Source: a virus | Lineage: Duplodnaviria > Heunggongvirae > Uroviricota > Caudoviricetes | Reading direction: 5' to 3' (one strand) | Virus record (IMG/VR): IMGVR_UViG_3300033076_000838 | Span: 175,836-239,835 of that record | Length of the DNA stretch: 64,000 bases | In this document: positions 1 through 59,863 of the stretch, in pieces | How the letters are laid out: each line of letters starts with the position of its first letter | Numbering within the stretch: the first letter of the stretch is position 1 | Position numbers and translations under genes: made by a program | The notes under the pieces: generated by a model | The model's input: only the letters and a program-made list of their open reading frames with translations | What the model was told of the DNA's origin: nothing | Database searches by the model: none

Positions 1-1212
1 AAATCCTTTGATAATTAAATCTAATAATGAATTATCATTATTAACACTATTCATTATTTTAGAATGAACCAAATCAGACCACTCTTTACATAATACATAA
101 TTTGTATCAAATTCATTCATAAATGATTCCACAAATTGTGCAAATAATTTACTATTTGCTCTACATCTTTTAGAGTCTTCATAAAATGGATGGGGTGGAA
201 TATCAAACATCAACTCTAACATTTTAAGTGGATAATCATGTGTAGATATAAATGGTATTCCTGCTAAAATAAGTGCAAATGTTTTTTCTGAAAGATATTG
301 TGATAGATATTCTTTTTTACTCCATGACCAACTTTCACAAAGTATTTGCATTTTGGCTTTTGATAAAACTCTAAAAAACATATCCATATATCCTTGATGA
401 TTCATAATCCAAGTAACATCCTCAAAATCATTTTTACCATATACGGAATTTATAGGTATGTGTTTTATTTTTGGTGAATTCAAATTATAATCTGGATTTT
501 GTAATGAATCGCTTCGTTGTAACAATAACCTATCGTTTTTAATTTTACTCAATTCGTTTATTATCAAAACTCTATTTAGTTTATGATTTTTTATACTATA
601 CATTAAATCATAATCAAAATTAAGTTTATCATAAATTTGTTTGAATTCGTAAAACCATCTAATACCAATTATCTCATTCCACTGGAATATGGTATTTGTT
701 AATGCGTAATGAAAATTTGGATATTTTGATTCTACTGCTGAATTTAAAAATAAATTATCCACAATAATATGATGATTATTTAATTCAGATAATAATTTTT
801 CTACCTCAACCCATTTATCATTTTGTTCTATCGTATCATGAGTTTGAAGTATTTTTTCAGTTCTAAAATAAGTTATTATCCATTTTTGGTGAGGTGGTGC
901 ATCTTTAATTAATTTTTTATATATGGATAGAATTTGTTGTGATTCTTGTTCCATATAATGTTCATCTCTTTCTATGTATCCAATTTTAGAATCACCACTT
1001 CCGTAAAATAAAGCTGTGAAATAATCTAATATATGATGACCATCTTCTTCAAAACTAATTTGATTTTTAAATATAAATTGAAAATCAACACCTTTATACT
1101 GACAATCAATTATATCAACACCATCTGATGAAGAATATTTACGATTAATAGTATTGTGTGCTACTTTATAAAATATTGATTTTTGATATGAGTGATGTAT
1201 GTATATTTTCAT
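1..1212 (-). CDS. Hypothetical protein, partial (runs off window start); possible glycosyltransferase-like C-terminal half
   Basis: Manual translation: ATG at 1212, open to base 1 (404 codons, MKIYIHHSYQKSIF...). Contains CESWSW...YLSEKTFALILAGIPFI, loosely like the GT10 'TEK' motif. Absent from the ORF track because it has no stop in the window. Confidence 0.7.
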   Translation of the reverse strand, partial: MKIYIHHSYQKSIFYKVAHNTINRKYSSSDGVDIIDCQYKGVDFQFIFKNQISFEEDGHHILDYFTALFYGSGDSKIGYIERDEHYMEQESQQILSIYKKLIKDAPPHQKWIITYFRTEKILQTHDTIEQNDKWVEVEKLLSELNNHHIIVDNLFLNSAVESKYPNFHYALTNTIFQWNEIIGIRWFYEFKQIYDKLNFDYDLMYSIKNHKLNRVLIINELSKIKNDRLLLQRSDSLQNPDYNLNSPKIKHIPINSVYGKNDFEDVTWIMNHQGYMDMFFRVLSKAKMQILCESWSWSKKEYLSQYLSEKTFALILAGIPFISTHDYPLKMLELMFDIPPHPFYEDSKRCRANSKLFAQFVESFMNEFDTNYVLCKEWSDLVHSKIMNSVNNDNSLLDLIIKGF

Positions 1213-1214
1213 AA

Positions 1215-1739
1215 CTAAATTATTTTTGTATCAAAATCAATTCGATTTCCTTTTCGTAATTTTCCCGGTTCGTTTATATCATATATATCCTCATAAAACG
1301 TTATTGGAATATTAAGTGTATTTGATATGTAAACTAATTCATCATTACATTTTTGAATGTATTCATATTCTTTATCGTAATTAGGAGTTCGTTCCCACAA
1401 ATATGGTTGGTTGGATTTAAAACTTTTTTCCTTTTCTTTATACATCAAATACGCCCAACTTTCTGCACAATTGGTTAGATTCTTTCTTGACAATAATATA
1501 ACTTCATCAAATTCTTTGGTTAAATTTAACAACCATTCAATTCTATCTTCACTTTTAATTGTAGTTGGTAAATGAAAAATTATTGTCTTAACAACTGCAT
1601 TTTTAAATTTACTTATATCTGGTATAGTTGTTGATGAATTAAATGGTTCAAACTCATATTTTAAATTATGTTTTATAGATAATCTTTTACCTAATTCACT
1701 AGAACCCGTTCTCGGTAACGCAATTATTAAAATATTCAT
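1215..1739 (-). CDS. Sulfotransferase-like P-loop protein (Stf0-like)
   Basis: N-terminal IIALPRTGSS resembles the 5'-PSB loop; LLSRKNLTNCAESW resembles the 3'-PB motif. Confidence 0.6.
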   Translation of the reverse strand: MNILIIALPRTGSSELGKRLSIKHNLKYEFEPFNSSTTIPDISKFKNAVVKTIIFHLPTTIKSEDRIEWLLNLTKEFDEVILLSRKNLTNCAESWAYLMYKEKEKSFKSNQPYLWERTPNYDKEYEYIQKCNDELVYISNTLNIPITFYEDIYDINEPGKLRKGNRIDFDTKII

Positions 1740-2302
1740 ATCAACGAATTATTATTTTTTACCTTTGGATAATTAAAATCAGTTTCAGTCATCCAAACAT
1801 TTAACGCATATCGAATCCCCTCCGTTACCGGTAAAACTCCATGATATGTTTTAGTTCCAATAAAAGATATAGAATCTCCTAATTTCAAATCAAATATTTC
1901 AATTCCATCTAAATTTTTAAAATTAAGTGATGGATTCTTACTTTCTGATAATGCAAATTGTCCACCATTAAATCCATCCGATAATACTATGACAGTAGTT
2001 AGTTCACTTGTTTTATCTTTATGTAAATTTAAATACCTCCCATCGTAATATGATGTTAAACTGATATTGAAGTTTTTTAAATCAAATGTATTATAATCAA
2101 ACCACAAACTAAATTCATTCGATTTATATTTTTGGATTAATAAATTGATAATTTTAGTTTTGAATTCTTCATCATATATTCGTCTACAATCCCACTTTTC
2201 AGATGGATTATACGAAAAGCGTTCACCATTACTCAAACAAAAATCAATAATATTATTTGCTTCAGTCCTATCACAAAAATTATTATTTATAGAATAATTC
2301 AT
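1736..2302 (-). CDS. 2OG-Fe(II) oxygenase
   Basis: YLNLHKD (HxD), LSDGFNGGQF, TYHGVLPVTEGIRYALNVW (distal His and Arg). Confidence 0.85.
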   Translation of the reverse strand: MNYSINNNFCDRTEANNIIDFCLSNGERFSYNPSEKWDCRRIYDEEFKTKIINLLIQKYKSNEFSLWFDYNTFDLKNFNISLTSYYDGRYLNLHKDKTSELTTVIVLSDGFNGGQFALSESKNPSLNFKNLDGIEIFDLKLGDSISFIGTKTYHGVLPVTEGIRYALNVWMTETDFNYPKVKNNNSLI

Positions 2303-3117
2303 TATAAAATTTTTATTTGTTTAGACGATGTAGATTTGATAATATTGGTTTCAGTAATAAATCTAAATAACTCTTCACCTATTAGTTTGTATCCTAATTT
2401 CGAAGGATGCATACCAGGAACATTTAATATATTATATTGTGGAGATTCCCATACATTTCTATCGTTAGTATTTGTTAAGAATTGTTTAAATGTCGTATTA
2501 CCAAATTTCCAATAGTTTGATTTATTGATTAAATTAGTTTTATCATCCTCCAATCGTATATTATCAATCATCATATCAAATGCATCACAAAAAATGTAAT
2601 TTATACCATAATATTCAAATAATGATTGTAGGAATAATATATAATTCTGATTGATTATATTGTAATAATTTTGTGTATATAATTCTCTTACAAAGAATTC
2701 TTTGAAATTGATAAGAAATTCGTTATACGTTGGATTTTTACTAAACTTATTGTGGGTAAACCATTTGGTTTTATGCTGCTCTTCTAAATACTTCACACCC
2801 CACACATGCCATTCATCGGTAGGAAAAAATGGAACACTATCTCTAAGAGTAGAACTCCACATAATAACCACTAAATCATTTTGTGATATTTTATAAGATT
2901 TTACTAAATCAATTATTCTATCGAATATTTGTTTATTTGAACTACCGGCTTCTCCATAATTTATATGAGGAATATCTAATAAATCACTCAATACCTTTGG
3001 CCATGCATGTTGGTTTCTATATTGTGTTTTTTCCAAATCGTTTGTGATTTTAGATTCAACATCTATATTACCACCAACACCTTCGGTCCAACTATCGCCA
3101 AATGCACATAACCTCAT
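2302..3117 (-). CDS. SGNH/GDSL hydrolase-fold protein
   Basis: AFGDSWTEG (block I), NYGEAGSSN (block II), MHPSKLGY (block V). Confidence 0.8.
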   Translation of the reverse strand: MRLCAFGDSWTEGVGGNIDVESKITNDLEKTQYRNQHAWPKVLSDLLDIPHINYGEAGSSNKQIFDRIIDLVKSYKISQNDLVVIMWSSTLRDSVPFFPTDEWHVWGVKYLEEQHKTKWFTHNKFSKNPTYNEFLINFKEFFVRELYTQNYYNIINQNYILFLQSLFEYYGINYIFCDAFDMMIDNIRLEDDKTNLINKSNYWKFGNTTFKQFLTNTNDRNVWESPQYNILNVPGMHPSKLGYKLIGEELFRFITETNIIKSTSSKQIKIL

Positions 3118-3129
3118 ATTATCAAATCA

Positions 3130-3267
3130 TTATGATAAATGCTTATCCTTTATTCTATTTACAAACTCTTGAACTGCAGCTGCAATTTTTACTTTTGTAT
3201 TAGATGGTATTGGTGCTATTAAAGCCTTAATGACCGTAGTAGGTCTTTCTATTCTTGTACTTGCCAT
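3130..3267 (-). CDS. Small hypothetical protein (45 aa)
   Basis: Manual translation MASTRIERPTTVIKALIAPIPSNTKVKIAAAVQEFVNRIKDKHLS; fills the gap between co-oriented genes. Confidence 0.65.
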   Translation of the reverse strand: MASTRIERPTTVIKALIAPIPSNTKVKIAAAVQEFVNRIKDKHLS

Positions 3268-3290
3268 AGTATAATATTTTTTTTAATTAT

Positions 3291-4769
3291 TTAAAGTTTA
3301 CCTCCACTACATGTTGGGCACCACCCAGAGTGGCAATAATATCCACACCAATTCCACGGACACCAACACGAGTTGTGCATCACACTAAAATCACCATCAC
3401 CTATATCAACAAGGAATAAATCGGATGGTTCAAAATCCATACTATAAATTACTTTTTGAGCATGTTCCATCTCTAATCCTGTAATTTCAATAGTTGTTAA
3501 TTGGTTGGTAGTAGAATCAGTTACAATTAATTTATCACCCACATACATTTTGTTTAATTTTTCAAAACGAGTTGCTAATGACCCAGATTCTTCAATATAA
3601 TATGTACATGAAGGCGAATCTACCCAAGTCTTACCATCGGCTAAAGTAACTCTTACATATATTGTATCGATGGATGCTGAAACAATTGATTGTAAACTAG
3701 ATGATGTAGATGTTAGAGTATCATTTGAATATTGTAATGAACCCGACCATCCATAAGTTTCGATTTGTGTTTCTTCAAATTTTGCTGCATGATTGTTATT
3801 AAAATCAAGAAAATCAATAGAACGAACGTAATCACCCAATTTTATAGTATCCACATCTATTAATGAACCAGTGTAATCTAAAATAACACTTTCATCATCG
3901 GTGTGATATTCGACTCCTCTATTTTTACCCAACTCTTTTGTAAGATATTTGTATCTACTTTTTTGATTTAACGTAGTTGTAGTAGAAAGTAATTCAGTAG
4001 ATGCGAATGTAAGTGGAATAATCGCAGATTGTCTATATCCACCCATATTAATTACATCTAAATTACCACCATATATAATATCTATACTTCTGATAATTGC
4101 ATATCTACCTTCTACTAAATTCGTTTCATCATAAATAAATTCTTGTAATAAATGATTTGTAGGAGTTGTAGATTTTAATGAACCCAATTCAGCATCAGAT
4201 GTTAATATATGTAATTCTGGATATAATTCACTATTATAATTTGGGTATCTTGCTTTAATTAATACATTTGGATTATTACCATTATCGGTTATTGTAGTAA
4301 TACCATCAAATCCCAATACACTATCATCTTGATATGTGTTTGGAATATAAGTAGAACCACTCATTAATGAGAAAAATTCAAATTTATCTGCACAATATGT
4401 TTCATCTACCAATGCAGTAGTATCAAATGCTTGTCTTAAAATAAATTTATTAGAAGTATCTTCAATATAAGGAACTGTCACCGAACCGAATGGAACAACA
4501 TAATCAGTAAACGTTATATTGTTTTCAGAACATTTTTGTTGTAATAATACCTTAAATTTATATGGTTGATTTACTGGTTTGTGTGAATCAACTTCAGTCC
4601 ATATATAATGGAATTCAGTTATTGAATTCGCTACCAACATAGTAAATAACGCATCGTAATCTAATAGGTCTGCACCATCGTTGTATATTGTGGTATTTGT
4701 GTTCGTTTCTAATATCTTAACATCACCATTATATTCTAATAGGTCAGTTCCAATAATTGTTGCTTTCAT
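3291..4769 (-). CDS. Fusion: circularly permuted ATP-grasp-like domain + Hint domain + 26-aa Cys/Trp-rich C-terminal peptide
   Basis: N-terminal GTDLLEYNGDVKILETN (D...ExN) precedes VLIKARYP and LLQEFI, the permuted ATP-grasp order. Hint blocks: SVILDYTGSLIDVDTIKLGDYVRS ... VGDKL ... IYSMDFEPSDLFLV ... VMHN, followed by SCWCPWNWCGYYCHSGWCPTCSGGKL. Confidence 0.7.
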   Translation of the reverse strand: MKATIIGTDLLEYNGDVKILETNTNTTIYNDGADLLDYDALFTMLVANSITEFHYIWTEVDSHKPVNQPYKFKVLLQQKCSENNITFTDYVVPFGSVTVPYIEDTSNKFILRQAFDTTALVDETYCADKFEFFSLMSGSTYIPNTYQDDSVLGFDGITTITDNGNNPNVLIKARYPNYNSELYPELHILTSDAELGSLKSTTPTNHLLQEFIYDETNLVEGRYAIIRSIDIIYGGNLDVINMGGYRQSAIIPLTFASTELLSTTTTLNQKSRYKYLTKELGKNRGVEYHTDDESVILDYTGSLIDVDTIKLGDYVRSIDFLDFNNNHAAKFEETQIETYGWSGSLQYSNDTLTSTSSSLQSIVSASIDTIYVRVTLADGKTWVDSPSCTYYIEESGSLATRFEKLNKMYVGDKLIVTDSTTNQLTTIEITGLEMEHAQKVIYSMDFEPSDLFLVDIGDGDFSVMHNSCWCPWNWCGYYCHSGWCPTCSGGKL

Positions 4770-4790
4770 ATTTTTCCTTTATATTTCATC

Positions 4791-4798
4791 TATAAATA
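4791..4798 (-). promoter_or_regulatory. Putative late promoter TATTTATA
   Basis: Octamer lies 22 nt upstream of the 4769 start; the same motif recurs before many structural genes. Confidence 0.65.
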
Positions 4799-4807
4799 TA
4801 TAATTCA

Positions 4808-5095
4808 TTAAATTAAGGAATTTTCATCCTTATCTGGTATAGGTTCTAAATATCCTAAATCAGTCTCTCCCCATTTTTTCTTTGTGCATGCATTAAATGT
4901 ATTCGAAAATACCTTTTTATTTAAAGGACACCCGCAGTGATTACATAATGCAGACCATTTTACACCTGATAATATTTCTTTTCTATATTCGCATCCCATA
5001 CACACATTTAATCTTTTCTCTGCTAATTCTTCTTGTAAAGGTGTTGGATTAAACGATGATTTCCATGCATCAAATATTTCTTTATAATCAATCAT
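4808..5095 (-). CDS. Small Cys-rich putative metal-binding protein
   Basis: CMGC ... CNHCGC ... CTKKKW. Confidence 0.7.
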   Translation of the reverse strand: MIDYKEIFDAWKSSFNPTPLQEELAEKRLNVCMGCEYRKEILSGVKWSALCNHCGCPLNKKVFSNTFNACTKKKWGETDLGYLEPIPDKDENSLI

Positions 5096-5857
5096 TTATA
5101 TTAGAGTTTTAACTGATTTTGGTAAATCGTAATAATCATAAATACTATTGTATTTTTTAATAAATTCGGAATTTAATTTTAAATTAGTTTCCATATGTTT
5201 ACTAGAATTTACTTCTTTTAATTGAAATGGTTTTTGAGTAATATTTGAAATCCACATTTCCATCTCTTTTAAATTTTTAATATCAAACCATATAATAGTT
5301 GGGTCGTTATTATGCCAATAAATTCCCGGTGTTATTAAAATATCAAGTATATTAACAATATATTCTTCGGAATGCAATTTTAATTCGATTGGTATGCCAT
5401 AACGTTGTGATAATAAATTTTTATCTATTAAATAATCGCATATAATATCCCATCGATTTTTCTTTGTAAGCAATTGTTCCGTTTTGTAAAAAAATAATTC
5501 ATCTAATGTAATGTTTTTAAAATATTCATATACATCATTTGCACCTGCTCGTTTTAAATCAAAAAGTATGTGTTTATATAATGAATAAAATGTTTCATGT
5601 CTATCTCTTTTTACTGCTATTATAGGATACTCAAATCCAAATTTTTTACCTAAATCAATTAGTGGTTCGTGTCCATGCTGAATATAATCCATTATAGTCG
5701 ATTCATCTATATTAGTAAAATCTATTTTCGAATTAAAAGAATTCCAACTTTCTTTAATAGTTTCAACTGATAATCCATTCAGTATACAAGAATAATGAAA
5801 CGACGTTGAACCTCTTCTTGGTAAACTCAAATATATAAACTTATTATCTATTAACAT
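5096..5857 (-). CDS. Sulfotransferase-like protein
   Basis: YLSLPRRGSTSF (5'-PSB-like); IAVKRDRHETFYSLY (3'-PB-like). Confidence 0.6.
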   Translation of the reverse strand: MLIDNKFIYLSLPRRGSTSFHYSCILNGLSVETIKESWNSFNSKIDFTNIDESTIMDYIQHGHEPLIDLGKKFGFEYPIIAVKRDRHETFYSLYKHILFDLKRAGANDVYEYFKNITLDELFFYKTEQLLTKKNRWDIICDYLIDKNLLSQRYGIPIELKLHSEEYIVNILDILITPGIYWHNNDPTIIWFDIKNLKEMEMWISNITQKPFQLKEVNSSKHMETNLKLNSEFIKKYNSIYDYYDLPKSVKTLI

Positions 5858-6507
5858 TATATCAAAGATTTTTCTTTTTTAATAAATTCAAATCCAACAT
5901 TACCAGCCATTACAATTCTATCTATTGTAGATTTCGGTGCATTGTTTGGAGTATGTGGCATATCACCTGGCATTATAATTAAATCATCTTCTTCCGGTCT
6001 TATCCAATATTCTTTTTTATTTTGGCCTCTAAAGTATAATACACCATCTTCGCCTTCCATTACATCTGGCATTTGAATATAATAAACGTAAGTATAAGTT
6101 GGAACAAATGATTCCATTTGTTTATTGATTTCAGTATGAACATGAAATTTATCTACACCTTTTAGTTCATTGTGTTTAAATTGTATTTGAACTGGGTCAA
6201 TTGAACGAACTACATTTACCCAAGAATCTGTATTAATTCTATTAAAAATTTTACCTTCTTCTACATAAATTTGTTTACATAAATTAATTCCATTTTGAAG
6301 TATTTCATCTAATTTATTTTCAATTTTAACATCACCTATAAAATTTAAATTATTTTTTTCTTTCTTATACCCAAACCCATCAGTTTTAACATCTGGCAAT
6401 GATTCAATCACATCTTTTGCTTCAGATATAATTTGGTTTTTGAATGATGATAAATTTAATTTTGTTTTCCAAATGAAAGTGGATTCATCAAAATATATTT
6501 TTTCCAT
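5857..6507 (-). CDS. 2OG-Fe(II) oxygenase-like (cupin/DSBH) protein
   Basis: FHVHTE, TYVYYIQMP, DLIIMPGDMPHTP, RIVMAGNV. Confidence 0.7.
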   Translation of the reverse strand: MEKIYFDESTFIWKTKLNLSSFKNQIISEAKDVIESLPDVKTDGFGYKKEKNNLNFIGDVKIENKLDEILQNGINLCKQIYVEEGKIFNRINTDSWVNVVRSIDPVQIQFKHNELKGVDKFHVHTEINKQMESFVPTYTYVYYIQMPDVMEGEDGVLYFRGQNKKEYWIRPEEDDLIIMPGDMPHTPNNAPKSTIDRIVMAGNVGFEFIKKEKSLI

Positions 6508-6508
6508 A

Positions 6509-7759
6509 TTATAACAATTCTTTTTTTATAATTTTTTTATTTTTTCTAAAAATGGTTGTATAGTTTGATACTGCAAATGGTAATTCATTCGTTGATGATT
6601 CTTTCAATTCAAACGAATTTAATAATTCTACATCATTTTTTGAGTTAATACTTTTATTCTCATTTAATATTAATTTTAATTTAGTTGGTATTGGTGTAGA
6701 TTGAGCATCCTTCCAAAATTGTGTATCATCTCGTTCCGTTAAATAATGATAACGAATAAATAACATATTTTGTTCATTTATTTCCGAACTCCATTGGTTG
6801 AATCTATCTCTATAATTTTCATTAAATTCAACATCTAATAAACGTTTTAATTGCATTATAGTTGTCATTAATGAGGTTGCTTCTAATGGTTCTATAAAAC
6901 TAAATGATAATCCAATTGATATAGAATTACCAATCCAACTTCGTTTGAACGTACCTGGATTAAAATCAAACACTTTTTGAATACTAATTTGATGACCTAA
7001 TTTAGTTTCAACTTCTACTTTAGCATCCTCAACTGATGTATATTTATCACTAAATACATATCCACATCCTAATCTATGTTGCAATGGTATTTGAAACATC
7101 CAACCATATTTCAGTGCTTCTAATTTAGTTTGTGTTCTATCTTTTATAGTAATTTTATTTTCTTGTGGTAAGAAAAACCCAAATGCTTTATTTACTAATA
7201 AATATTCTGAATAATCAATCCAATCTTCTTTATGTATTTTACCAGTTATTAATCTAGCAAATCCACTGCAATCAAATATAAAATCTAAATTGATTTTTCC
7301 ATTGTTTAATAAATCTAAACTATTAATAATTTCATTTCTATTATTTATTTTTACAATGTCATCATCAATCCATTTAACACCCCTACTAATAGCAATTTCT
7401 CTAAGATATTTAGAAACCATTTTAGCATCAAAATGATATGCATACGAAATAGATTGCAATAATTCGGATGGTTGTTTACCCATAAGTGGATGTTTAGCAA
7501 TTCTACCATCACCATTCCAATTTATAAATTCTAATCCATTTTTTATAGATGAACCGGTTTTATTAAAAAAATCAGTTTGGTCTATTTCTAATAATGAAAG
7601 CATTTTACCAAAATTAGATGTTCCACCTTCACCCGCACCTAATATTCCAATTTTAGAACTTTCGATTAGTGTTACATCTACGTTTTTCCAAAATTTATTT
7701 ACAACTAATGCAGTCAACCAACCAGCAGTACCTCCACCAATAATCACAACTTTTTTCAT
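6509..7759 (-). CDS. Flavin-dependent tryptophan halogenase-like protein
   Basis: IGGGTAGW, GAGEG, SIKNGLEFINW (Lys at the catalytic position), FDCSGF, GWMFQIP, FIEPLEATS. Confidence 0.85.
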   Translation of the reverse strand: MKKVVIIGGGTAGWLTALVVNKFWKNVDVTLIESSKIGILGAGEGGTSNFGKMLSLLEIDQTDFFNKTGSSIKNGLEFINWNGDGRIAKHPLMGKQPSELLQSISYAYHFDAKMVSKYLREIAISRGVKWIDDDIVKINNRNEIINSLDLLNNGKINLDFIFDCSGFARLITGKIHKEDWIDYSEYLLVNKAFGFFLPQENKITIKDRTQTKLEALKYGWMFQIPLQHRLGCGYVFSDKYTSVEDAKVEVETKLGHQISIQKVFDFNPGTFKRSWIGNSISIGLSFSFIEPLEATSLMTTIMQLKRLLDVEFNENYRDRFNQWSSEINEQNMLFIRYHYLTERDDTQFWKDAQSTPIPTKLKLILNENKSINSKNDVELLNSFELKESSTNELPFAVSNYTTIFRKNKKIIKKELL

Positions 7760-8325
7760 ATAACTGATTTTTTTATTTCTTTACTTGGCCAAACATTTAA
7801 AGAATATCTAATCCCACTATTTAATTTATCTACACAATGCAATATATTTGAATCGAATATAAAAATACTACCTTGTTTTTTAGGAACATTATATTCAATA
7901 CCATCAATCATATAAATTACATCACCACCATCGTAATCATCATTTAATTGAAATATGATAGTTGATGATGCCCCATACATAATTTCGTGTGAATCGGAAT
8001 GCCAATCTAAAAAATCATCCTTTGAATATTCATTAAAAGAATATTTTGGAATTCCATTATATTTGATTCCATTAAAAGGTTTTAACTCATTTAAAATGGT
8101 TATTGTTTTATCTGATATAGATTTTATTTCTGATAATTCTAATGTATTATCTACAAAATAACAACCCATTCTTTTGTTTGTATTTTCATTTAAACCACTT
8201 TCAGTATAAACACCATTTACAAATTTAGATGATGTCATTTTATTTAATCCGAGTGATTTACCCAAATCAATAATAAAATTACATTCTTCTGGTGTTAAAA
8301 AATTTTCAATATATTTTACAAACAT
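7756..8325 (-). CDS. 2OG-Fe(II) oxygenase (P4H/PKHD-like)
   Basis: DWHSD, QLNDDYDGGD, ILHCV...GIRYSLNVW. Start moved to MFVKY at 8325 because the track start (8433) runs through the promoter region. Confidence 0.85.
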   Translation of the reverse strand: MFVKYIENFLTPEECNFIIDLGKSLGLNKMTSSKFVNGVYTESGLNENTNKRMGCYFVDNTLELSEIKSISDKTITILNELKPFNGIKYNGIPKYSFNEYSKDDFLDWHSDSHEIMYGASSTIIFQLNDDYDGGDVIYMIDGIEYNVPKKQGSIFIFDSNILHCVDKLNSGIRYSLNVWPSKEIKKSVI

Positions 8326-8344
8326 AATGTATCTATTTTGTATA

Positions 8345-8389
8345 TATAAATATATAAAAACTACTTTTTTTGATATTATAATATTTATA
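8345..8389. promoter_or_regulatory. Back-to-back putative late promoters (TATTTATA on minus at 8345-8352 and on plus at 8382-8389)
   Basis: Each copy lies 20-24 nt upstream of its divergent start codon (8325 and 8413). Confidence 0.7.
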
Positions 8390-8412
8390 AGCAATAAACA
8401 AAATATATAATT

Positions 8413-8592
8413 ATGAAAGACGTGTATAAGCAAAAGATTGTAGATTTGATTAATTCAATTAACGGAAGAGTAGTATTGATTGATAAAATGATTGATGGCC
8501 AGAAACAACCTAACCCACAAGAAGCAAAACAATACATCAGAGAAATTCAAAAAGGTTTAGAACAAATAGACGAGTTTATCTCAATATCGTAA
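8413..8592 (+). CDS. Small hypothetical protein (59 aa)
   Basis: Manual translation MKDVYKQKIVDLINSINGRVVLIDKMIDGQKQPNPQEAKQYIREIQKGLEQIDEFISIS; lies between the promoter and the 8594 gene. Confidence 0.7.
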   Translation: MKDVYKQKIVDLINSINGRVVLIDKMIDGQKQPNPQEAKQYIREIQKGLEQIDEFISIS

Positions 8593-9669: not shown

Positions 9670-9993
9670 ATGGTGACAGTTTCAGAATCTGCGGCTAAAA
9701 AACTTAATAATCTTATAGAAGAAAGTGGGTTTACTACTCCTTATGTAAGAGTGGCAGTTAAAGGTGGTGGGTGTAGTGGTTTATCATATGACCTTTCATT
9801 TGATACCAACCAACAACCGAATGATACACTTGCTGAAGATAAAGGTATAAAAATCTTAGTAGATAATAAATCTCTATTATACCTATTTGGGACAGAATTG
9901 GAGTTTTCCGATGGATTAAATGGTAAAGGATTCCAATTTATTAACCCAAATGCCAGTAGAACCTGTGGTTGTGGGGAAAGTTTTTCCCTATAA
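9670..9993 (+). CDS. iscA: A-type Fe-S cluster carrier (IscA/HesB family)
   Basis: RVAVKGGGCSGLSY and the C-terminal CGCGESF motif. Confidence 0.92.
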   Translation: MVTVSESAAKKLNNLIEESGFTTPYVRVAVKGGGCSGLSYDLSFDTNQQPNDTLAEDKGIKILVDNKSLLYLFGTELEFSDGLNGKGFQFINPNASRTCGCGESFSL

Positions 9994-13151: not shown

Positions 13152-13421
13152 ATGTTACAAATTACAAAAGAAGAATTGGTAGAAAAATTATTAGTAGAAG
13201 AAATTTCCGTAACTTTTACAAAGGCAGATGGTACTGATAGAACTATGTTATGTACCAAACAATTTAGTAAAATACCGCAAGAGTTTCACCCAAAAACTGA
13301 TAAGGTTGTTAAATTAGATGAAAACGGAAACGTAATCGAAACGGATTTGATTTCAGTTTGGGATTTAGAAAAACAAGGATGGAGAAGTTTTAATTTTAGT
13401 AAAGTAAAAGAAATTGTTTAA
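13152..13421 (+). CDS. Small SH3/WYL_2-like beta-barrel phage protein
   Basis: VTFTKADGTDRTMLCT ... VWDLEKQGWRSF pattern. Confidence 0.65.
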   Translation: MLQITKEELVEKLLVEEISVTFTKADGTDRTMLCTKQFSKIPQEFHPKTDKVVKLDENGNVIETDLISVWDLEKQGWRSFNFSKVKEIV

Positions 13422-14527
13422 TGAATACGATAGATAAAAAGTATCAAGACCTGTTACAAGATATTTTAGATAATGGAGTAAAGAAAAAAGATAGAACCGG
13501 AACTGGTACTATATCCGTATTTGGTAGACAAATCCGTCACAAAATGTCACAAGGGTTTCCATTACTAACCACAAAAAAAATGGCGTGGAATGTAATGGTT
13601 ACGGAACTCCTATGGTTTTTAAGAGGAGATACTAACATTAAATTTCTATTGGATTATAATTGTCATATTTGGGATGGTGATGCTTACAAAGTACATTTAC
13701 ATAATGCTCCCATAGGAAATGAAAATTATTTAACAAAAGAAGAATTCATTGCCAAAATTAAAACCGATAAAGAGTTTGCAAAGGTATGGGGTGATTTAGG
13801 ACCAATCTATGGTAAACAATGGCGAAGTTGGAAACGAAACGCAACTCGTGATGAAAAAATAGTTGAACCGGGTGTTTATACAAAATATATAGACCAAATA
13901 GATAATCTGATTAATGAACTCAAAACAAACCCAGATAGTAGAAGATTGATGGTTAATGCTTGGAATGTTGGTGAATTAGACCAAATGGTTTTACCACCTT
14001 GTCATTATGGATTTCAAGTTTATACAAGAGAATTAAGTAATAAAGAACGATATAGAATTTGGTTTAATAAAAACTATGAGAGTGGTATGGAGTTTAACGA
14101 TGAACTGATACCTGATTTTGATGACAAGTATTATGAATCCACTCCAAAGAGAGCAATTTCTTTAATGTGGAATCAACGTTCGGTAGATACATTTTTAGGA
14201 TTACCATTTAACATTGCTTCTTACGGATTACTATTAGAGATTATAGCAAAGGAGGTTGGGATGTATGCAGATGAACTGATTGGTAACTTAGGAGATGTAC
14301 ATTTGTATTCTAATCACATAGAACAAGCAAAAGAACAAATCAGTAGAGAACCATTTGATTTACCAAAGATTAACATCACCGAACGAAATTGGTATCTACA
14401 TGAAAAAGTAAAAGAACATTTAGGTCCTAAAACATTTAGTGAAAAGATTTTAAGTTATAGACCAGATTGTTTTGAATTACAAAATTATATATCACATCCA
14501 AAATTAAGAGCACCTTTAAGTAATTAG
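13421..14527 (+). CDS. thyA: Thymidylate synthase
   Basis: DRTGTGT, FPLLTTKK, GDLGPIYGKQWR, LPPCH, QRSVDTFLGLPFN, GDVHLY. Confidence 0.96.
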   Translation: MNTIDKKYQDLLQDILDNGVKKKDRTGTGTISVFGRQIRHKMSQGFPLLTTKKMAWNVMVTELLWFLRGDTNIKFLLDYNCHIWDGDAYKVHLHNAPIGNENYLTKEEFIAKIKTDKEFAKVWGDLGPIYGKQWRSWKRNATRDEKIVEPGVYTKYIDQIDNLINELKTNPDSRRLMVNAWNVGELDQMVLPPCHYGFQVYTRELSNKERYRIWFNKNYESGMEFNDELIPDFDDKYYESTPKRAISLMWNQRSVDTFLGLPFNIASYGLLLEIIAKEVGMYADELIGNLGDVHLYSNHIEQAKEQISREPFDLPKINITERNWYLHEKVKEHLGPKTFSEKILSYRPDCFELQNYISHPKLRAPLSN

Positions 14528-21425: not shown

Positions 21426-21836
21426 ATGAGCACAGAATTTGAAATATTCCCTGGCAAAAGTTTAAGTGGATTATTTAAAGATATTTACGATAATCAACAA
21501 AATAAGAAGGCAAGAATCTCTGAATTGATTGCCGAAATGAGAAAACTAATCCGTCACGCAGGTGATATGGCTGTTATTGGTCCTATCTTAAAAGATTTGG
21601 TAGATGTATCCGTTCGTAACGATGATGCCCTAATCAAACTTGCAACAATCGCACAACGTATCGTTACTGCAAACACAAAAACCGAAGGTGAGACTGGATT
21701 CTTAACCGATGCGGAAAAAGAACAATTATTAAAAGAAATTGAAATAACTGTCAATGATGTGAAAGATGAACAAGATGCAAAGGTAGATGAATTGACAAAT
21801 GAAGTTGAAGAACTAAAACAAAAGATTGGTAAATAA
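21426..21836 (+). CDS. Helical hypothetical protein heading the baseplate operon
   Basis: ORF track; coiled-coil character; follows a late promoter. Confidence 0.7.
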   Translation: MSTEFEIFPGKSLSGLFKDIYDNQQNKKARISELIAEMRKLIRHAGDMAVIGPILKDLVDVSVRNDDALIKLATIAQRIVTANTKTEGETGFLTDAEKEQLLKEIEITVNDVKDEQDAKVDELTNEVEELKQKIGK

Positions 21837-41731: not shown

Positions 41732-42670
41732 ATGCTATCAACACCTGATAAACTAACAATTATTAGTATCTTAGATGATACATTAGGACATGGTTCATCC
41801 CTAAAAGGAAGTGAACAAGCACATTATTGTCCTTTCTGTCATCATCATAAAAAGAAACTCCAAGTAAATTTAGATACACAACAATGGCATTGTTGGGTGT
41901 GTGATTCTAAGGGAAAGCGTATTTATTCTCTTTTACGAAAACTACAGGTTGATTCCCATAAATTAAAAAAGGTATTAGAAATATATGGTGATGATTATGT
42001 TGTCACTAATGGAAATGATGATGAGCAAATCGATTTACGATTACCATCAGAATTTGTTTCACTTACCGAAACTCCAAAAGGATTAAATCCACTTTATAAA
42101 AAGGTAAAACATTATCTAAAAGTTAGAGGTATTACTGAAAGTGATGTAATACGATATAATATGGGGTATTGTCAAAAAGGATTATATGCTGGAAGAGTTA
42201 TTATACCATCATATGATTCCAATAATAAATTAAATTATTTTATTGCACGTTCGGTTTATGATGATGAACCTTACAAATATAAAAATCCACCAGTTTCAAA
42301 GAATGTAATTATGTTTGAAAACCAAATCAATTGGGATGAACCTATTACACTTTGCGAGGGTGCATTTGATGCTCTTTCTATTAAACGAAACGCAATTCCA
42401 ATCTTAGGTAAATTTATTCCAAAAAAATTAATGGATAGTATATATCAAAGAGGGGTTAAAAAAATCAATATTGTATTAGATAGCGATGCACAAGACCAAG
42501 CTTTATATTATACAATTTATTTTCAAAAACAAGGTATAGACACAAAAAATATAATCCCCTCTGAAAAAGATGCATCGGAAATGGGATTTCAAAATATCAA
42601 TAAAATATTAAAAAATACTAAACAAACTGATTTTGGTGATATTATATCCCAAAAGTTACAAATTCTATGA
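41732..42670 (+). CDS. DNA primase (Zn finger + TOPRIM; gp61/DnaG-like)
   Basis: CPFC...CWVC, RVIIP, YKNP, LCEGAFDA, VLDSD. Confidence 0.9.
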   Translation: MLSTPDKLTIISILDDTLGHGSSLKGSEQAHYCPFCHHHKKKLQVNLDTQQWHCWVCDSKGKRIYSLLRKLQVDSHKLKKVLEIYGDDYVVTNGNDDEQIDLRLPSEFVSLTETPKGLNPLYKKVKHYLKVRGITESDVIRYNMGYCQKGLYAGRVIIPSYDSNNKLNYFIARSVYDDEPYKYKNPPVSKNVIMFENQINWDEPITLCEGAFDALSIKRNAIPILGKFIPKKLMDSIYQRGVKKINIVLDSDAQDQALYYTIYFQKQGIDTKNIIPSEKDASEMGFQNINKILKNTKQTDFGDIISQKLQIL

Positions 42671-45600
42671 TAGTAAACAAAATATACCATTTAGCAGATT
42701 TACACATCAGAAATTTACAAAGACATAAAGAATATCGTGAGGTATTCAAAAAGTTTTTGAAACAAGTAGAAGATGATAAAATTGAAGATTCTATTATTTA
42801 TTTAGCAGGGGACATTGCTCATGCTAAAACTGAAATGTCTCCTGAATTGATTCAAGAGATAAGTTGGTTTCTAACGGAATGTTCTAAGTTAAGAGAAACT
42901 TTCTTAATCACAGGTAATCACGATTGTAACTTAAACAACCAACATAGATTAGATGTTCTTACGCCCATTATTGACAATCTTAATAATTCTCGCATACACT
43001 ATCTTCGCGACACTGGTGTTTATAAGCAGCATAATCTTACTTTTGTCGTTTATTCCATATTGGATAAAAAAGAAAATTGGCCAGAGGCTAAAACGATAGA
43101 AGGTGAGAATAAAATTTGTTTATTTCACGGCCCTGTAAATAAAGCACAAACCGATATTGGTTATGTGGTATCATCCAACTCATTCACTGTCGATATGTTC
43201 GATGGGTTTGATATGGTTATGATGGGTGATATTCACAAACGTCAAACTTTTGGTGAAGGGTATGAACACGTTGCATATGCAGGTTCTATGATTCAACAAA
43301 ATCACGGCGAAATGTTGGAGAATCATGGTTACTTAATATGGGATGTCCCAACTCGTACTTTTACCGAACATCACATTCATAATGATTATGGATTCTTAAC
43401 AATTGATGTGGTTGGTGGTGTAATTCCACAATGGGTCTATGATGAAATTGGAACTAAATTACCAAAAAATCCTCGTTTAAGATTACGTTTTACAAACACC
43501 GAACCATCGGATATGAAACTCCGTATTGCAGAGTTAAAACAAATGTTTAACGTTGCAGAGGTGACAGTAACAAGAACCGATACGATTGGTCAATTAAAAC
43601 GTAATTCTAAATTAAATAAAAATATCGTTGGTAATGTAAAGGATGAAACATTCCAAAACCAATTGATTAGAGATTATTTAGAAAGACAATTTTTATTAGA
43701 AGATTCAGAATTAGATAAAATTTCAGAAATAAATAAAGAAATAAATCACCGAATAGATGATTCCACTCTTACTGAAAATATTCTTTGGACTCCTAAGACA
43801 TTGGAGTTTTCAAATATGTTTTCATATGGTGAAGGTAACAAAGTTAGATTTGAAGATGCAAATGGTGTGATTGGTATTTTTGCACCAAACGCTAGTGGTA
43901 AATCATCGTTATTTGATGCACTTTCATTTTGTATATTTGATAAGACATCTCGTACCTCTTCATCAAAAAACATCTTAAATAACCAAAAAGATAATTTCTA
44001 TTGTAAGTTTAATTTTGAAATCGATGGTGTTGATTATTTCATCGAACGAAGTGCAAAGTGGACTAGAAAAGGAACAAACCTTTCAGTAAACGTAAACTTT
44101 TGGAAAGAAGATGCAGGTGTAATTACATCTCTAAATGGAGAACAACGTAGAGATACTAACAAAAATATTGAAAGATATTTGGGTAAGTTTGAAGATTTTG
44201 TTTTAACATCATTATCTCTACAAGGAAACAACGCACTCTTCATAGATAAATCCCAAGCGGAAAGAAAGGAAATCCTTTCACAATTTATTGGAGTAGATAT
44301 TTTCGATAAATTATATCAATTAGCATCAGATGAGAATAGAGAAAATGCAACTTTGATTAAGAAATTTAAATCGGATGATTTCACATCTAAACTTGCTCAG
44401 ATTGAAACTGATTTAAAGGAAAACAAAAATGAATACAAATTAGTTGAAATTGAATTGAATGGTATTAGAGATGAAGAAGATGGTTTAAATAAGGATTTAA
44501 TCAGATTAAATGGTAAAATTGTAAAATTAAATTCTGATTTAGTTGGTATAGACGAATTAGAAAAAAGAAAGAAAATTCTTACCGAAAAGGAAACTGAAAT
44601 CCTAAATACTAAAACTGCAATACAAGAAAGAATTACCAAATTAGAGGATTTACAACTACAATTAGAGGAAATTATTGATGGATACGATGAAGAAGATTTA
44701 GAAGAAAAAATGGGAGTGTTAAAGATTTGTAGAAATGATTTTAACACATCCAAACATGAATTAGAAAAATTAGATATTAAAATCAATTCCTTAAACGATA
44801 AGAAAGCACATTTAGATTTACACAAATACAATCCAAATTGTGAAATTTGTATGGAGAATTCGGAAACGATTTTGGAATCTAAAAAAGATGTAGAAGAGGT
44901 TCTTGCTAATCTAATGGATGAATGGGGAGATGCTATTCGTATTAATGAACTTGCAGAAGAAAAAATAAATCAATATTCATTATATGAATCAGATTGGAAA
45001 AACTTAGTGGAAACTAAGGAAAAGGAAGATAAGGTTGATAGAGAATTATCAACTTTAATGAATAAACTTTCTGCATCCGAAACCGAAGAGGTTAGAATAC
45101 AAACTCAAATTTCAGAACAAATCAAACTTATTGAAGAGTACCATCAAAATGAAGAACAAATCAAAAAGAATGGTGAAATTAGAGAAGAAATTAAAGGTAA
45201 GAGAGATTTATTAGATGATGTAAAAAGACGATTTACAAAAACAAACAAATCACTTTTAGAACTAAATGGTAAAGTTTCATCTCTAAAAAACCAAAAAGAA
45301 ACCTTAGAGGATAAAATCAAAGAGGTTAAAAAATTAGAGGAACAATCCAAATTATATGAGTATTATCTGAATTCTTTGAGTAAGGATGGTGTATCATATG
45401 AATTGATTGAAAAGGCATTACCTATGATTGAAGGTGAGGTAAATAATATCCTTGCACAGATTGTAGAGTTTGGAATGCAATTAGAGATGGATGGTAAGAA
45501 TATCAATGCTTACCTTGTTTATGGTGATAATAAGTGGTCTTTGGAGATGTGTAGTGGTATGGAGAGATTTATATCAGGACTTGCAATTAGAGTTGCTCTA

Positions 45601-45822
45601 ATTAATGTATGTAACTTACCTCGTCCAAATTTCTTAGTAATCGATGAAGGGTTTGGTACATTAGATAGTGAGAATTTACAATCTCTATTTATGTTATTTA
45701 CCTATTTGAAAACACAATTTGATTTTGTAATGATTATTTCACACATCGACTCAATGAGAGATGTAGTTGATGGTCTAATCGAAATTAAAAAGATAGAAGG
45801 ATTTAGTCACGTGAAGTACTAA
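42667..45822 (+). CDS. Fused SbcD/Mre11-type nuclease and SbcC/Rad50-type ATPase (gp47-gp46 fusion)
   Basis: ADLHIR, AGDIAH, GNHD, FHGPV, MGDIHK, YAGS; then FAPNASGKSS, coiled coil with CEIC hook, CSGME, IDEGFGTLD, IISH. Confidence 0.92.
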   Translation: MIVNKIYHLADLHIRNLQRHKEYREVFKKFLKQVEDDKIEDSIIYLAGDIAHAKTEMSPELIQEISWFLTECSKLRETFLITGNHDCNLNNQHRLDVLTPIIDNLNNSRIHYLRDTGVYKQHNLTFVVYSILDKKENWPEAKTIEGENKICLFHGPVNKAQTDIGYVVSSNSFTVDMFDGFDMVMMGDIHKRQTFGEGYEHVAYAGSMIQQNHGEMLENHGYLIWDVPTRTFTEHHIHNDYGFLTIDVVGGVIPQWVYDEIGTKLPKNPRLRLRFTNTEPSDMKLRIAELKQMFNVAEVTVTRTDTIGQLKRNSKLNKNIVGNVKDETFQNQLIRDYLERQFLLEDSELDKISEINKEINHRIDDSTLTENILWTPKTLEFSNMFSYGEGNKVRFEDANGVIGIFAPNASGKSSLFDALSFCIFDKTSRTSSSKNILNNQKDNFYCKFNFEIDGVDYFIERSAKWTRKGTNLSVNVNFWKEDAGVITSLNGEQRRDTNKNIERYLGKFEDFVLTSLSLQGNNALFIDKSQAERKEILSQFIGVDIFDKLYQLASDENRENATLIKKFKSDDFTSKLAQIETDLKENKNEYKLVEIELNGIRDEEDGLNKDLIRLNGKIVKLNSDLVGIDELEKRKKILTEKETEILNTKTAIQERITKLEDLQLQLEEIIDGYDEEDLEEKMGVLKICRNDFNTSKHELEKLDIKINSLNDKKAHLDLHKYNPNCEICMENSETILESKKDVEEVLANLMDEWGDAIRINELAEEKINQYSLYESDWKNLVETKEKEDKVDRELSTLMNKLSASETEEVRIQTQISEQIKLIEEYHQNEEQIKKNGEIREEIKGKRDLLDDVKRRFTKTNKSLLELNGKVSSLKNQKETLEDKIKEVKKLEEQSKLYEYYLNSLSKDGVSYELIEKALPMIEGEVNNILAQIVEFGMQLEMDGKNINAYLVYGDNKWSLEMCSGMERFISGLAIRVALINVCNLPRPNFLVIDEGFGTLDSENLQSLFMLFTYLKTQFDFVMIISHIDSMRDVVDGLIEIKKIEGFSHVKY

Positions 45823-57106: not shown

Positions 57107-57942
57107 ATTTAGTTACTGTCGTTGGCCATAACACAACTATGTTAGGACATATGATTCAACATTATAAAAATATAGTTGATGAAATTCATGTGGTTGTTTA
57201 TAGACAAAACGTAAATGATGGTATATTGGATGAAGTTAAAAAATTAGGCATAATACCAATCAAAGTAGTTACTGAACCAAAATTTAATTGGGAACGGGTA
57301 ACTGAATTATATAATGAAATTAAACAAACCAAACCAAACGAATGGTGGGTAGTTTCAGACGATGATGAATTCCACATTTATCCAAAACCAATTAAAGAAC
57401 TGATTTCAGAATGCGAAGAAAATGGTTGGGATTTTATAACAGGTGGATTCATAGATAGGATAGGAGAAAATGGAGAATTTCCAATCGTTGAGAAAGACTC
57501 TAATATTTGGGAAAAGTTTCCACTTGCTGGATTTTTTAGGCATCCGATGAGTGGGGCTTGTCCTAATAAAGTTTGTGTAATGAAAGGATATGTTGATGTA
57601 ACCCCTGGTCAACATTATGCTAAAATTGGTGATAGTGATACTTGGAGAGAAAGGGGTTGGAATCACCCAAAACGATACCCATATGGTAATGGTGAAGGAT
57701 TTATACAAGTTCATCATTTTAAATGGGATTCGACCGTTTTAGAAAGATTAAAAGAAGTTTCTGAAACAAAAGAAGATTATACATTTTGGAAAGAATATAA
57801 AAAAATGTATAGAGGCATACAAATAAATGATTGGAAAATTGATATTAATAATCCTACATTTATGATAGAAAAAATGACAGATAATACTCATTCTGATTAT
57901 TCAAAATGGGATAAACTAACAAGAATTATACTTCATATATGA
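57094..57942 (+). CDS. GT-A glycosyltransferase (GT2-like)
   Basis: HMIQHY...; WWVVSDDDEF (DxD); HHFKW. Confidence 0.75.
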   Translation: MSKINLVTVVGHNTTMLGHMIQHYKNIVDEIHVVVYRQNVNDGILDEVKKLGIIPIKVVTEPKFNWERVTELYNEIKQTKPNEWWVVSDDDEFHIYPKPIKELISECEENGWDFITGGFIDRIGENGEFPIVEKDSNIWEKFPLAGFFRHPMSGACPNKVCVMKGYVDVTPGQHYAKIGDSDTWRERGWNHPKRYPYGNGEGFIQVHHFKWDSTVLERLKEVSETKEDYTFWKEYKKMYRGIQINDWKIDINNPTFMIEKMTDNTHSDYSKWDKLTRIILHI

Positions 57943-59414: not shown

Positions 59415-59418
59415 AAAT

Positions 59419-59643
59419 ATGATAAATACTATAATTAAAAATGAAAAGGCTGTAAAAACGTTAGAACGATTAGCAGATGAATTAGAAAATTTAAAAACAA
59501 AAGAAACCGATTTATCATTCGTTCCGGCAATGATTTTTCTGATATTAGAAAGATTCAGAACATCTAATACTCCGTTTCCTATAACATTTTTCACCAAACA
59601 ACCAAATAAAAAAAATAAAAAAAATGGCAAAACAATTAAATGA
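59419..59643 (+). CDS. Small hypothetical protein
   Basis: ORF track; shares VKxLERxADxLE with the next gene. Confidence 0.45.
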   Translation: MINTIIKNEKAVKTLERLADELENLKTKETDLSFVPAMIFLILERFRTSNTPFPITFFTKQPNKKNKKNGKTIK

Positions 59644-59863
59644 TTCTTCGATAGAAGAAAGAGGTGTTAAGGCATTAGAAAGAATAGCCGATACATTAGA
59701 AGACATGAACGATTGGGTTTATGCATTAGAAACCGATGCCTGGTCTGAAAGATTAGAGTGGTATTTGAATGAATTTTATATGATTGCAAAAGCTAAAACA
59801 ATTGGTTCAGTAAATAGACCAGTAAGAGATGCCGAAAGACAAGAAACCGATAGTGAAAAGTAA
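59624..59863 (+). CDS. Small hypothetical protein
   Basis: ORF track; A-rich start context. Confidence 0.65.
   Translation: MAKQLNDSSIEERGVKALERIADTLEDMNDWVYALETDAWSERLEWYLNEFYMIAKAKTIGSVNRPVRDAERQETDSEK

Follow-up and report, generated by a model that had tools for sequence, protein, structure and literature searches.

A bacteriophage protein joining a permuted ATP-grasp ligase, a Hint domain and a six-cysteine tail: a candidate self-processing peptide precursor

A three-part phage protein

The gene studied here, P0001, lies in a stretch of 64,000 nucleotides (the window, by which we mean the whole of the DNA analysed) that is part of a 287-kb IMG/VR record of a large uncultured phage, with a G+C content of ~29%. 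It is an open reading frame (ORF) on the minus strand, starting with ATG and ending with a stop codon at 3291-3293, and its 492-residue product is built of three parts: a circularly permuted ATP-grasp ligase domain, a Hint domain and a 26-residue tail with six cysteines. The ORF, the fold models, the motifs and the tail composition all agree on this architecture, which is thereby confirmed. Its elements are the following.

3291-4769, minus strand: whole ORF P0001, 492 amino acids, with 545 homologues and 270 clusters at 50% identity
3921-4769, minus strand: circularly permuted ATP-grasp amide-ligase domain (residues 1-283) of the GspS/YgiC/eukaryotic glutathione synthetase class, from the model, fold matches and conservation
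4701-4745, minus strand: D-x11-E-x-N metal-binding motif, relocated to the N-terminus (residues 9-23), from motif and profile
4134-4145, minus strand: QEFI hinge motif (residues 209-212), with the family consensus LQEF
3372-3908, minus strand: Hint domain (residues 288-466), from fold and profile matches, lacking Cys/Ser at position 1 and the block-B His
3372-3377, minus strand: H465-N466, predicted Asn cyclisation site with the scissile bond N466-S467, from conservation in homologues
3294-3371, minus strand: Cys6/Trp4 tail (residues 467-492), 26 amino acids, from the Cys pattern in close homologues

The first-pass annotation of this DNA had proposed the same three-part polypeptide. Its ATP-grasp domain in permuted, GspS-like order is borne out by the motif order and by the fold matches of the model to YgiC and GspS; its Hint domain ending in HN, devoid of the position-1 Cys/Ser and of the block-B His, by fold matches and by column counts in 141 homologues; and its 26-residue Cys/Trp tail beginning with Ser by the composition, read directly.

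Taken alone, the P0001 sequence gave no match in Pfam, PHROGs or the PDB sequences. A word-indexed search retrieved 545 homologues, of which the 120 listed were full length and 63-98% identical, and an exhaustive HMMER search yielded the 270 cluster representatives. Sources that name family members give only "hypothetical protein". All members come from phage or metagenome contigs, the ESM-Atlas neighbours of P0001 are 96-100% viral (Uroviricota), and a pattern scan located 99 family loci in IMG/VR. No relative was found across 185,579 GTDB species genomes by pattern and tblastn searches, which are sensitive to close relatives only, and among 50,697 GenBank phage records, a set that may lack entries close to the window, neither tblastn nor megablast detected a match. 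The AlphaFold2 model of the full-length protein, built on 141 homologues, had a predicted local distance difference test score (pLDDT) of 89.8 and a predicted template modelling score of 0.83, with pLDDT values below 50 limited to the linker 282-285 and the tail 469-492. Fold searches of BFVD and AFDB returned Hint proteins only, plus A0A2E0BTD6, an unnamed protein with the same architecture as P0001. No description of this architecture was found in the literature searched on ATP-grasp, Hint, jumbo phage, ribosomally synthesised and post-translationally modified peptides (RiPP), intein-like and core peptide.

The ligase domain

Modelled alone, residues 1-283 reached a pLDDT of 95.3. Foldseek (E 2.7e-6) and a Foldseek-independent all-against-PDB alignment agreed, the top eleven matches all being circularly permuted ATP-grasps. 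The alignment to YgiC (7uka) comprises 203 residues, from the first residue of the model onwards, with a Z of 9.6 (VIA) and a root mean square deviation of 4.3 Å; GspS (2io7) gave a Z of 8.9 and fungal Cp1B (9cjn), the E-64 ligase, a Z of 7.8. Further matches to permuted ATP-grasps were the eukaryotic glutathione and homoglutathione synthetases, 3n6x and 3k1t. For the non-permuted ATP-grasps RimK, LysX/ArgX, TTLL and DdlA, the alignment was restricted to residues ~50-283, so residues 1-49 can be read as the transposed C-terminal strand pair bearing D9, E21 and N23. These are the residues of the D-x11-E-x-N motif, which in P0001 precedes K172 and QEFI, and whose region matched biotin carboxylases weakly, by profile, at their E-x-N strand (residues ~274-301).

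The GspS alignment begins at GspS residue 310 and places D9, E21 and N23 opposite GspS residues 318, 330 and 332, which we take to be magnesium ligands. The YgiC alignment begins at YgiC residue 94, and P0001 lacks the ~90-residue pre-ATP-grasp segment found at the N-terminus of GspS and YgiC. In 140 homologues, E21, N23, R112 and D122 are invariant, and D9, K172 and R227 are present in at least 90%. K172, R112 and R227 have putative ATP or acyl-phosphate roles, assigned by position only, and the domain looks catalytically intact. Pfam detected neither GSP_synth nor CP_ATPgrasp in P0001; among 140 members it found GSP_synth once (E 0.0026) and RimK four times (best E 0.012). Judged by its model, the P0001 ligase is a new minimal family inside the GspS-like structural clade.

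The Hint domain and its terminal His-Asn

The second domain (residues ~288-466) matched the hedgehog Hint domain 1at0 (E 1.6e-7, TM by target 0.77), the Mtu RecA mini-intein 2in8 (TM 0.79) and the Clostridium bacterial intein-like (BIL) domain 2lwy (TM 0.77), together with Tetrahymena BIL2. The best sequence-profile match of the family was the Ala1 MjaKlbA intein 2jmz (E 2.7e-9), and no Pfam Hint model, PT-HINT included, detects the first Hint of P0001. In the 141 homologues, position 1 is His, Lys or Gly, Cys or Ser never being dominant, and the block-B His column holds Ser, Ala, Cys or Thr. The terminal pair is nearly always kept (H465 in 134/141, N466 in 139/141), is invariant in close homologues (109/109) and persists, along with the catalytic residues of the ligase, in homologues only 22-30% identical to P0001. 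It stands exactly at the C-terminus of the Hint domain and is far better conserved than the positions flanking it. The following residue (+1) varies among Ala, Ser, Pro, Val, Tyr and Gly, and Cys is common at +2. The class 1 inteins are recognised by Cys/Ser1, a block-B Thr-x-x-His, HN and a +1 Cys/Ser/Thr, and the P0001 family keeps only the His-Asn.

Lacking Cys1 and the block-B His, this Hint domain cannot form the N-terminal thioester, while the requirements for Asn cyclisation are retained. The A-type BIL domains, with their conserved C-terminal His-Asn, undergo C-terminal cleavage via Asn cyclisation and need no +1 nucleophile (PMC7765530). Tail release is now better supported than at first: the His-Asn is near-invariant down to 22-30% identity while the +1 residue varies, and we consider that P0001 probably releases its tail by self-cleavage at this site.

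The cysteine-rich tail and its variants

Starting from Ser, the tail contains 6 Cys, 4 Trp, 2 Tyr, 2 Pro, 1 His and 1 Lys among its 26 residues, and neither Asp nor Glu. Searched alone against the PDB sequences, it gave a chance match only (E 9.5). Its pattern is x-C-W-C-P-W-x-[YW]-C-G-x-x-C-x-S-x-x-C-P-x-C, followed by a variable stretch and a terminal K-[LIV]. All six Cys are retained throughout the 109 close homologues; W469, P471, W472, G476 and S481 show little or no change, and 106 of these proteins have the penultimate Lys. The expectation drawn from the single sequence was a hypervariable tail in which the Cys spacing is fixed. The fixed Cys stand, as does variability in the stretch from the sixth Cys to the penultimate Lys (>2 bits); the tail core, however, has the same mean entropy as the ligase (0.90 bits each, against 0.79 for the Hint domain).

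Over the whole family, the sequences after the His-Asn are diverse, from short Cys tails and Cys-rich domains of 60-150 residues to non-Cys domains of up to 540 residues and tandem Hints. Length allowed 231 proteins to be classified: short Cys tails account for 163, long Cys-rich tails for 18, a Cys segment followed by a Peptidase_S74-like domain for 19, a Cys segment followed by a second Hint for 6, and a second Hint directly after the His-Asn for 7. The other 18 comprise 9 with no recognisable His-Asn, 5 with other cargo and 4 with tails of at most 12 residues. Pfam assigned no family to the long cargo domains of P0152, P0167, P0253 and P0258. Most of the distant tails carry a Lys only a few residues from their end, and one is likewise found after the second Hint.

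Two of these classes bear directly on cleavage. In the 19 S74 variants, the Cys core is immediately followed by K|S-D-I-S-Y-K-E-N, an S74-type S-D-x-x-x-K site, and by the S74-like domain, which is absent from P0001 and whose Pfam E of 2.8e-4 is just under the cut-off; the Ser...Lys spacing is presumably that of the endosialidase chaperone cleavage dyad. In the six second-Hint variants, C-F-[IV]-A-G-T...V-H-N-K-K comes after the Cys core. These second Hints have Cys1, match PT-HINT (E 1e-12) and are genuine Hints, each followed by a short Lys-bearing stub. In both classes the Cys-rich peptide would be cut out at both ends. Since a downstream self-cleaving module bounds the Cys segment, the segment appears to be meant for excision, which is the strongest indirect support for cleavage at the His-Asn of P0001.

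Four other homologues (P0247, P0265, P0268 and P0246) carry two to three tandem Hints straight after the family His-Asn, with HN-C junctions and no Cys-rich segment. P0145, which resembles a split Hint-plus-tail gene, comes from a contig of only 1 kb and has probably been cut short.

A 45-residue protein accompanying the ligase

A component overlooked in the first-pass annotation is encoded immediately downstream of P0001.

3130-3267, minus strand: 45-amino-acid micro-ORF, predicted ligase subunit, from synteny, alignment A3 and the predicted complex

Its coding part spans 3133-3267 and its stop codon 3130-3132. An equivalent lies directly downstream in 68/70 IMG/VR loci and also behind distant homologues, and R8, I13, K25, A31, K40, H43 and L44 are invariant in the alignment. 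Co-folding of P0001 with the 45-residue protein gave ipSAE values of 0.79, 0.79 and 0.80, against 0.00 for the best control; in the benchmark of this score, the mark was reached by 58/80 solved complexes and 2/110 mismatched pairs. In the predicted complex the partner has a pLDDT of at least 75, and the runs share at least 88% of their contacts. On the ligase, these contacts involve the even-numbered positions of strands 3-13, 16-23 and 222-232, plus residues 235-252; a few Hint residues take part as well. The model supports binding of the 45-residue protein to the ligase. The predicted contact face is the side of the sheet opposite D9, E21, N23 and R227, and we read the protein as a structural subunit rather than as a substrate.

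Neighbouring genes and upstream elements

P0001 lies within a co-oriented block (1-8433) that encodes three 2-oxoglutarate (2OG)-Fe(II) oxygenases, a Trp halogenase (Pfam E 2.5e-87), an SGNH protein, a 95-residue Cys-rich protein and two unassigned proteins; an IscA-like gene is found nearby at 9670-9993. Halogenase, oxygenases, adenosine 5′-phosphosulfate (APS) kinase and carbamoyltransferase are kept beside homologues only 30-47% identical to P0001. In the 48 loci with enough flanking sequence, the tail motif C-P-W was present in 34/37 with a halogenase and absent from 10/11 without one, which is no more than suggestive of a halogenase that tracks this motif. At loci L002 and L005, an APS-kinase-like gene stands in the same operon, which fits a supply of 3′-phosphoadenosine 5′-phosphosulfate for sulfotransferase-like proteins.

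4808-5095, minus strand: 95-amino-acid Cys-rich protein, CxxC...CxxCGC...C, a neighbour in L002-L005, with weak matches to DUF6171 and phrog_13558
4775-4780, minus strand: Shine-Dalgarno-like AAAGGA upstream of the P0001 ATG
4791-4800, minus strand: tATATTTATA upstream element, its core 8-mer starting ~30 nt before the ATG

The 95-residue protein always adjoins the fusion gene, upstream or downstream, and is a candidate partner for binding peptides or handling metals. Of the ten proteins encoded in the minus-strand block 1215-8433, nine end in two aliphatic residues, usually after Ser, Thr or Lys: the endings are SLI (three times), TLI, SVI, ELL, KII and KIL, with KL on the fusion protein. Few of the 41 other ORFs of the window end in this way, and a ligase homologue lacking the Hint domain (P0143, described below) ends in SKLI. 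An S/T-x-hydrophobic ending presumably resembles a class I PDZ-type C-terminal ligand, and the two-aliphatic ending may be a docking or targeting tag.

Upstream of P0001, the Shine-Dalgarno-like sequence annotated earlier is present. On the plus strand, the 8-mer at 4791-4798 is TATAAATA, hence TATTTATA on the gene strand, and it is not above chance in the 64-kb window (15 found, 20.7 expected). In its oriented form, tA-TATTTATA, it closely precedes the ATG, its start lying at a distance of 22-32 nt, in this gene and in at least six other ORFs (starts at 21426, 25251, 32251, 37295, 46041 and 54051). The oriented sites include 4791, 21397, 25220, 32225, 37263, 40413, 46014 and 54026, some of them preceding large structural-looking genes. 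This repeated placement before ORF starts makes tA-TATTTATA a recurrent upstream element, and it is likely to be a phage promoter or leader element. What had been called the gene's own late promoter stands to that extent. A T4-type late promoter at 4791-4798 was rejected, the gene-strand orientation being opposite to that of T4 late TATAAATA, which leaves "late" as an inferred label.

Elsewhere on the plus strand of the window, a single 1051-residue ORF (42667-45822) joins a calcineurin-like phosphoesterase to an SMC/AAA_23 ATPase in a fusion of the Mre11/SbcD-Rad50/SbcC type. A thymidylate synthase of 368 residues (13421-14527) matches the 266-position Pfam model end to end, with ~100 inserted residues. 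In each of three consecutive paralogues (57939-62710), glycosyltransferase family 7 domains of eukaryote type occur together with a Laminin_G_3 lectin-like domain.

A proposed route from precursor to modified peptide

We propose that P0001 is a self-processing precursor in which release of the tail, a heteromeric ligase, an amide formed at the peptide end and tailoring by neighbouring enzymes are combined. This proposal goes past the fold assignments, and we judge it somewhat likelier to hold than to fail. Asn466 would cyclise to a succinimide, cutting N466-S467, which would free a 26-residue peptide with a new alpha-amine (calculated monoisotopic mass 2983.13 Da, reduced and linear) and leave a 52.5-kDa ligase-Hint body. 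The ligase would act as a heteromer with the 45-residue protein, packed on the beta-sheet face opposite the active site and touching the Hint domain. It would then form an amide at the C-terminal K-[LIV] end of the peptide, by amine coupling or by head-to-tail closure; this is the weakest step. As the nearest relatives activate a peptide C-terminal carboxylate for amine coupling, the ligase would most likely act at this end. With neither Asp nor Glu in the tail, the sole carboxylate would be the C-terminus, and the sole amines the new N-terminus and the single Lys. The peptide would be a likely substrate of the co-transcribed Trp halogenase, 2OG-Fe(II) oxygenases and sulfotransferase-like enzymes. 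Graspetide (microviridin-type) chemistry, in which an ATP-grasp cross-links Asp/Glu with Ser/Thr/Lys side chains of a core peptide, was rejected: the tail has no acidic residues, and by structure the ligase belongs with the GspS class rather than with the microviridin ligases.

Within this proposal, action of the ligase on the released peptide is tentative, and we place its likelihood short of even. A bolder form, a largely autocatalytic phage route to a knotted peptide, seems doubtful to us. In that route the Hint domain would unmask the alpha-amine and the two-subunit ATP-grasp would activate the C-terminal carboxylate, the outcome being a head-to-tail six-Cys macrocycle of cyclotide size or attachment to another molecule. 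In the sister variants, the second Hint thioester or the S74 cut would replace part of this chemistry.

Several observations weigh against the precursor proposal. The cleavage product and the ligase activity are predictions from sequence and model. The F-block His, which assists Asn cyclisation in inteins, is replaced by Asp in 96/141 homologues and kept in 27. AlphaFold2 gives the tail (pLDDT <50) no placement and no confident packing on the body. Some homologues have no Cys-rich segment after the His-Asn, carrying tandem Hints or a large Cys-poor cargo, and the ligase is kept where a second Hint could already activate the peptide C-terminus as a thioester. The association of the halogenase with C-P-W comes down to four independent contrasts, two in the same direction and two uninformative (sign test p 0.5). 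Finally, a stand-alone ligase, P0143, is found on two contigs: it has 291 residues and an intact catalytic motif, and it lacks both Hint and tail.

A 40-residue homologue of the micro-ORF follows this stand-alone ligase, from which we take the conserved core to be the ligase plus the micro-protein. The role of the ligase need not depend on a fused peptide, and processing of its own tail becomes less likely; the earlier suggestion that the fused ligase acts on its own tail is weakened by this homologue. At the two loci concerned (L087:1036-2050 and L088), an SGNH-like gene comes next after the micro-ORF.

Alternative explanations

The stand-alone ligase also strengthens the view that the Hint domain and the C-terminal segment are an add-on cassette, comparable to those of pretoxin-Hint or A-type BIL proteins, that is carried by a conserved phage ligase and releases a variable effector such as a toxin, metal binder or signal, the substrate of the ligase being unrelated. 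The ligase and micro-ORF without Hint or tail, the high diversity of the sequences after the His-Asn and the location of A-type BILs in hypervariable regions (PMC7765530) all fit such a cassette. That the fusion has been stably kept, its active site intact, across hundreds of lineages nevertheless favours a functional link. The tail core of the close clade is moreover conserved like the enzyme rather than polymorphic, and the downstream micro-ORF does not co-vary with the cargo, unlike an immunity gene. On balance we hold the cassette to be unlikely, though it keeps appreciable weight.

The tail might instead never be cleaved and serve as a permanent Zn or Fe-S knuckle of six Cys and His that regulates or anchors the ligase, the His-Asn being structural. 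The CxC and CxxC spacing and the frequent His of the tails resemble metal sites, the cytoplasm is reducing, which makes disulfides unlikely there, and the IscA-like gene is close by. Yet the position of the His-Asn at the very end of the Hint domain and its conservation relative to its neighbours speak for a cleavage site, the S74 and second-Hint variants are sensible only if the segment is excised, and the tail shows no confident packing against the body; a permanent metal knuckle thus appears improbable.

A structural role in the virion, in which the S74-type chaperone of some homologues would mark the end of a trimeric fibre, is suggested by the S74-like C-termini of 19 homologues and by tail-fibre-sized genes elsewhere in the window. 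It is very improbable, given that the body has the fold of an enzyme and keeps its catalytic residues, that the gene stands in an operon of enzymes and not among structural genes, and that S74 is missing from most members. Splicing of the class 2 type, in which the Hint domain would be removed and the ligase joined to the tail through the conserved +2 Cys, draws on the Ala1 MjaKlbA intein as best profile match and on the frequency of that Cys, but with a non-nucleophilic +1 residue, no block-B His and a Hint-free P0143 that is also tail-free, so that Hint and tail travel as one module, it has hardly any chance of being correct.

Relation to known systems

With the GspS family (GspS 2io7, YgiC/YjfC 7uka/7uk6, glutathione synthetase, Cp1B 9cjn), P0001 shares the permuted fold (Z 7.8-9.6 over ~200 residues) and a D-x11-E-x-N motif that opens the domain. 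The members of this family all activate a carboxylate, usually a peptide C-terminus, and then add an amine; YgiC and YjfC are peptide-spermidine ligases (Pederick et al. 2023, as cited in PMC12568646). Unlike them, P0001 has no significant sequence or Pfam match and no N-terminal segment, is fused to a Hint domain, is paired with a 45-residue protein and is confined to phages.

The A-type BIL and pretoxin-Hint proteins have in common with P0001 the Hint fold, the terminal His-Asn, a variable downstream sequence and a non-nucleophilic +1 residue. The P0001 Hint differs by the lack of Cys/Ser1 and of the block-B His, which leaves only the C-terminal reaction possible, by an upstream partner that is an enzyme and not a secretion or repeat region, and by the absence of a Pfam Hint match. 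In the Tetrahymena BUBL proteins, a ubiquitin-like cargo is bounded by BIL domains (BIL2 6y75), and BIL2 transfers the C-terminus of the upstream cargo to the epsilon-amine of a Lys without ATP (PMC8616854). Cargo between self-processing Hints is likewise found in the second-Hint variants of our family, whose order of Hint1, Cys-rich segment, Cys1 Hint2 and K/KK matches this layout. P0001 itself has no second Hint, its cargo is a Cys-rich peptide and not a ubiquitin fold, and a predicted ATP-dependent ligase is present.

As in P0001, the enzyme and a C-terminal core form one polypeptide in the borosins (OphMA-type) and in fused burpitide cyclases, of which split versions coexist with the fused ones (PMC7878506, 10.1101/2021.12.24.474128, PMC11253845). 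The coexisting borosin forms offer a parallel for the fused and stand-alone phage ligases. These systems need a separate protease, whereas release in P0001 would be autocatalytic via the Hint domain, and its enzyme is an ATP-grasp. Finally, LysX/ArgX with LysW (structural matches 3vpb and 5k2m) also pair an ATP-grasp with a partner protein of ~50 residues. LysW offers its C-terminal Glu to the active site, while the phage 45-residue protein, which is devoid of a Zn finger, is predicted to sit across the sheet from that site.

Significance

If both cleavage and ligation hold true, P0001 would be the first ribosomal peptide precursor to free its own core via a Hint domain while bearing an amide ligase, and the 45-residue micro-protein would be the obligate partner of a minimal ATP-grasp. 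Should the route to a knotted peptide be real, it would constitute a new class of ribosomal peptide maturation, with a precursor that carries both a protease-free release device and a ligase. Such a compact, protease-free module for peptide release would also be of use in engineering. The design is widespread, its 270 clusters at 50% identity being all phage or metagenomic, and it would mean that large aquatic phages make modified Cys-rich peptides, with candidate roles as toxin, metal binder, signal or virion factor.

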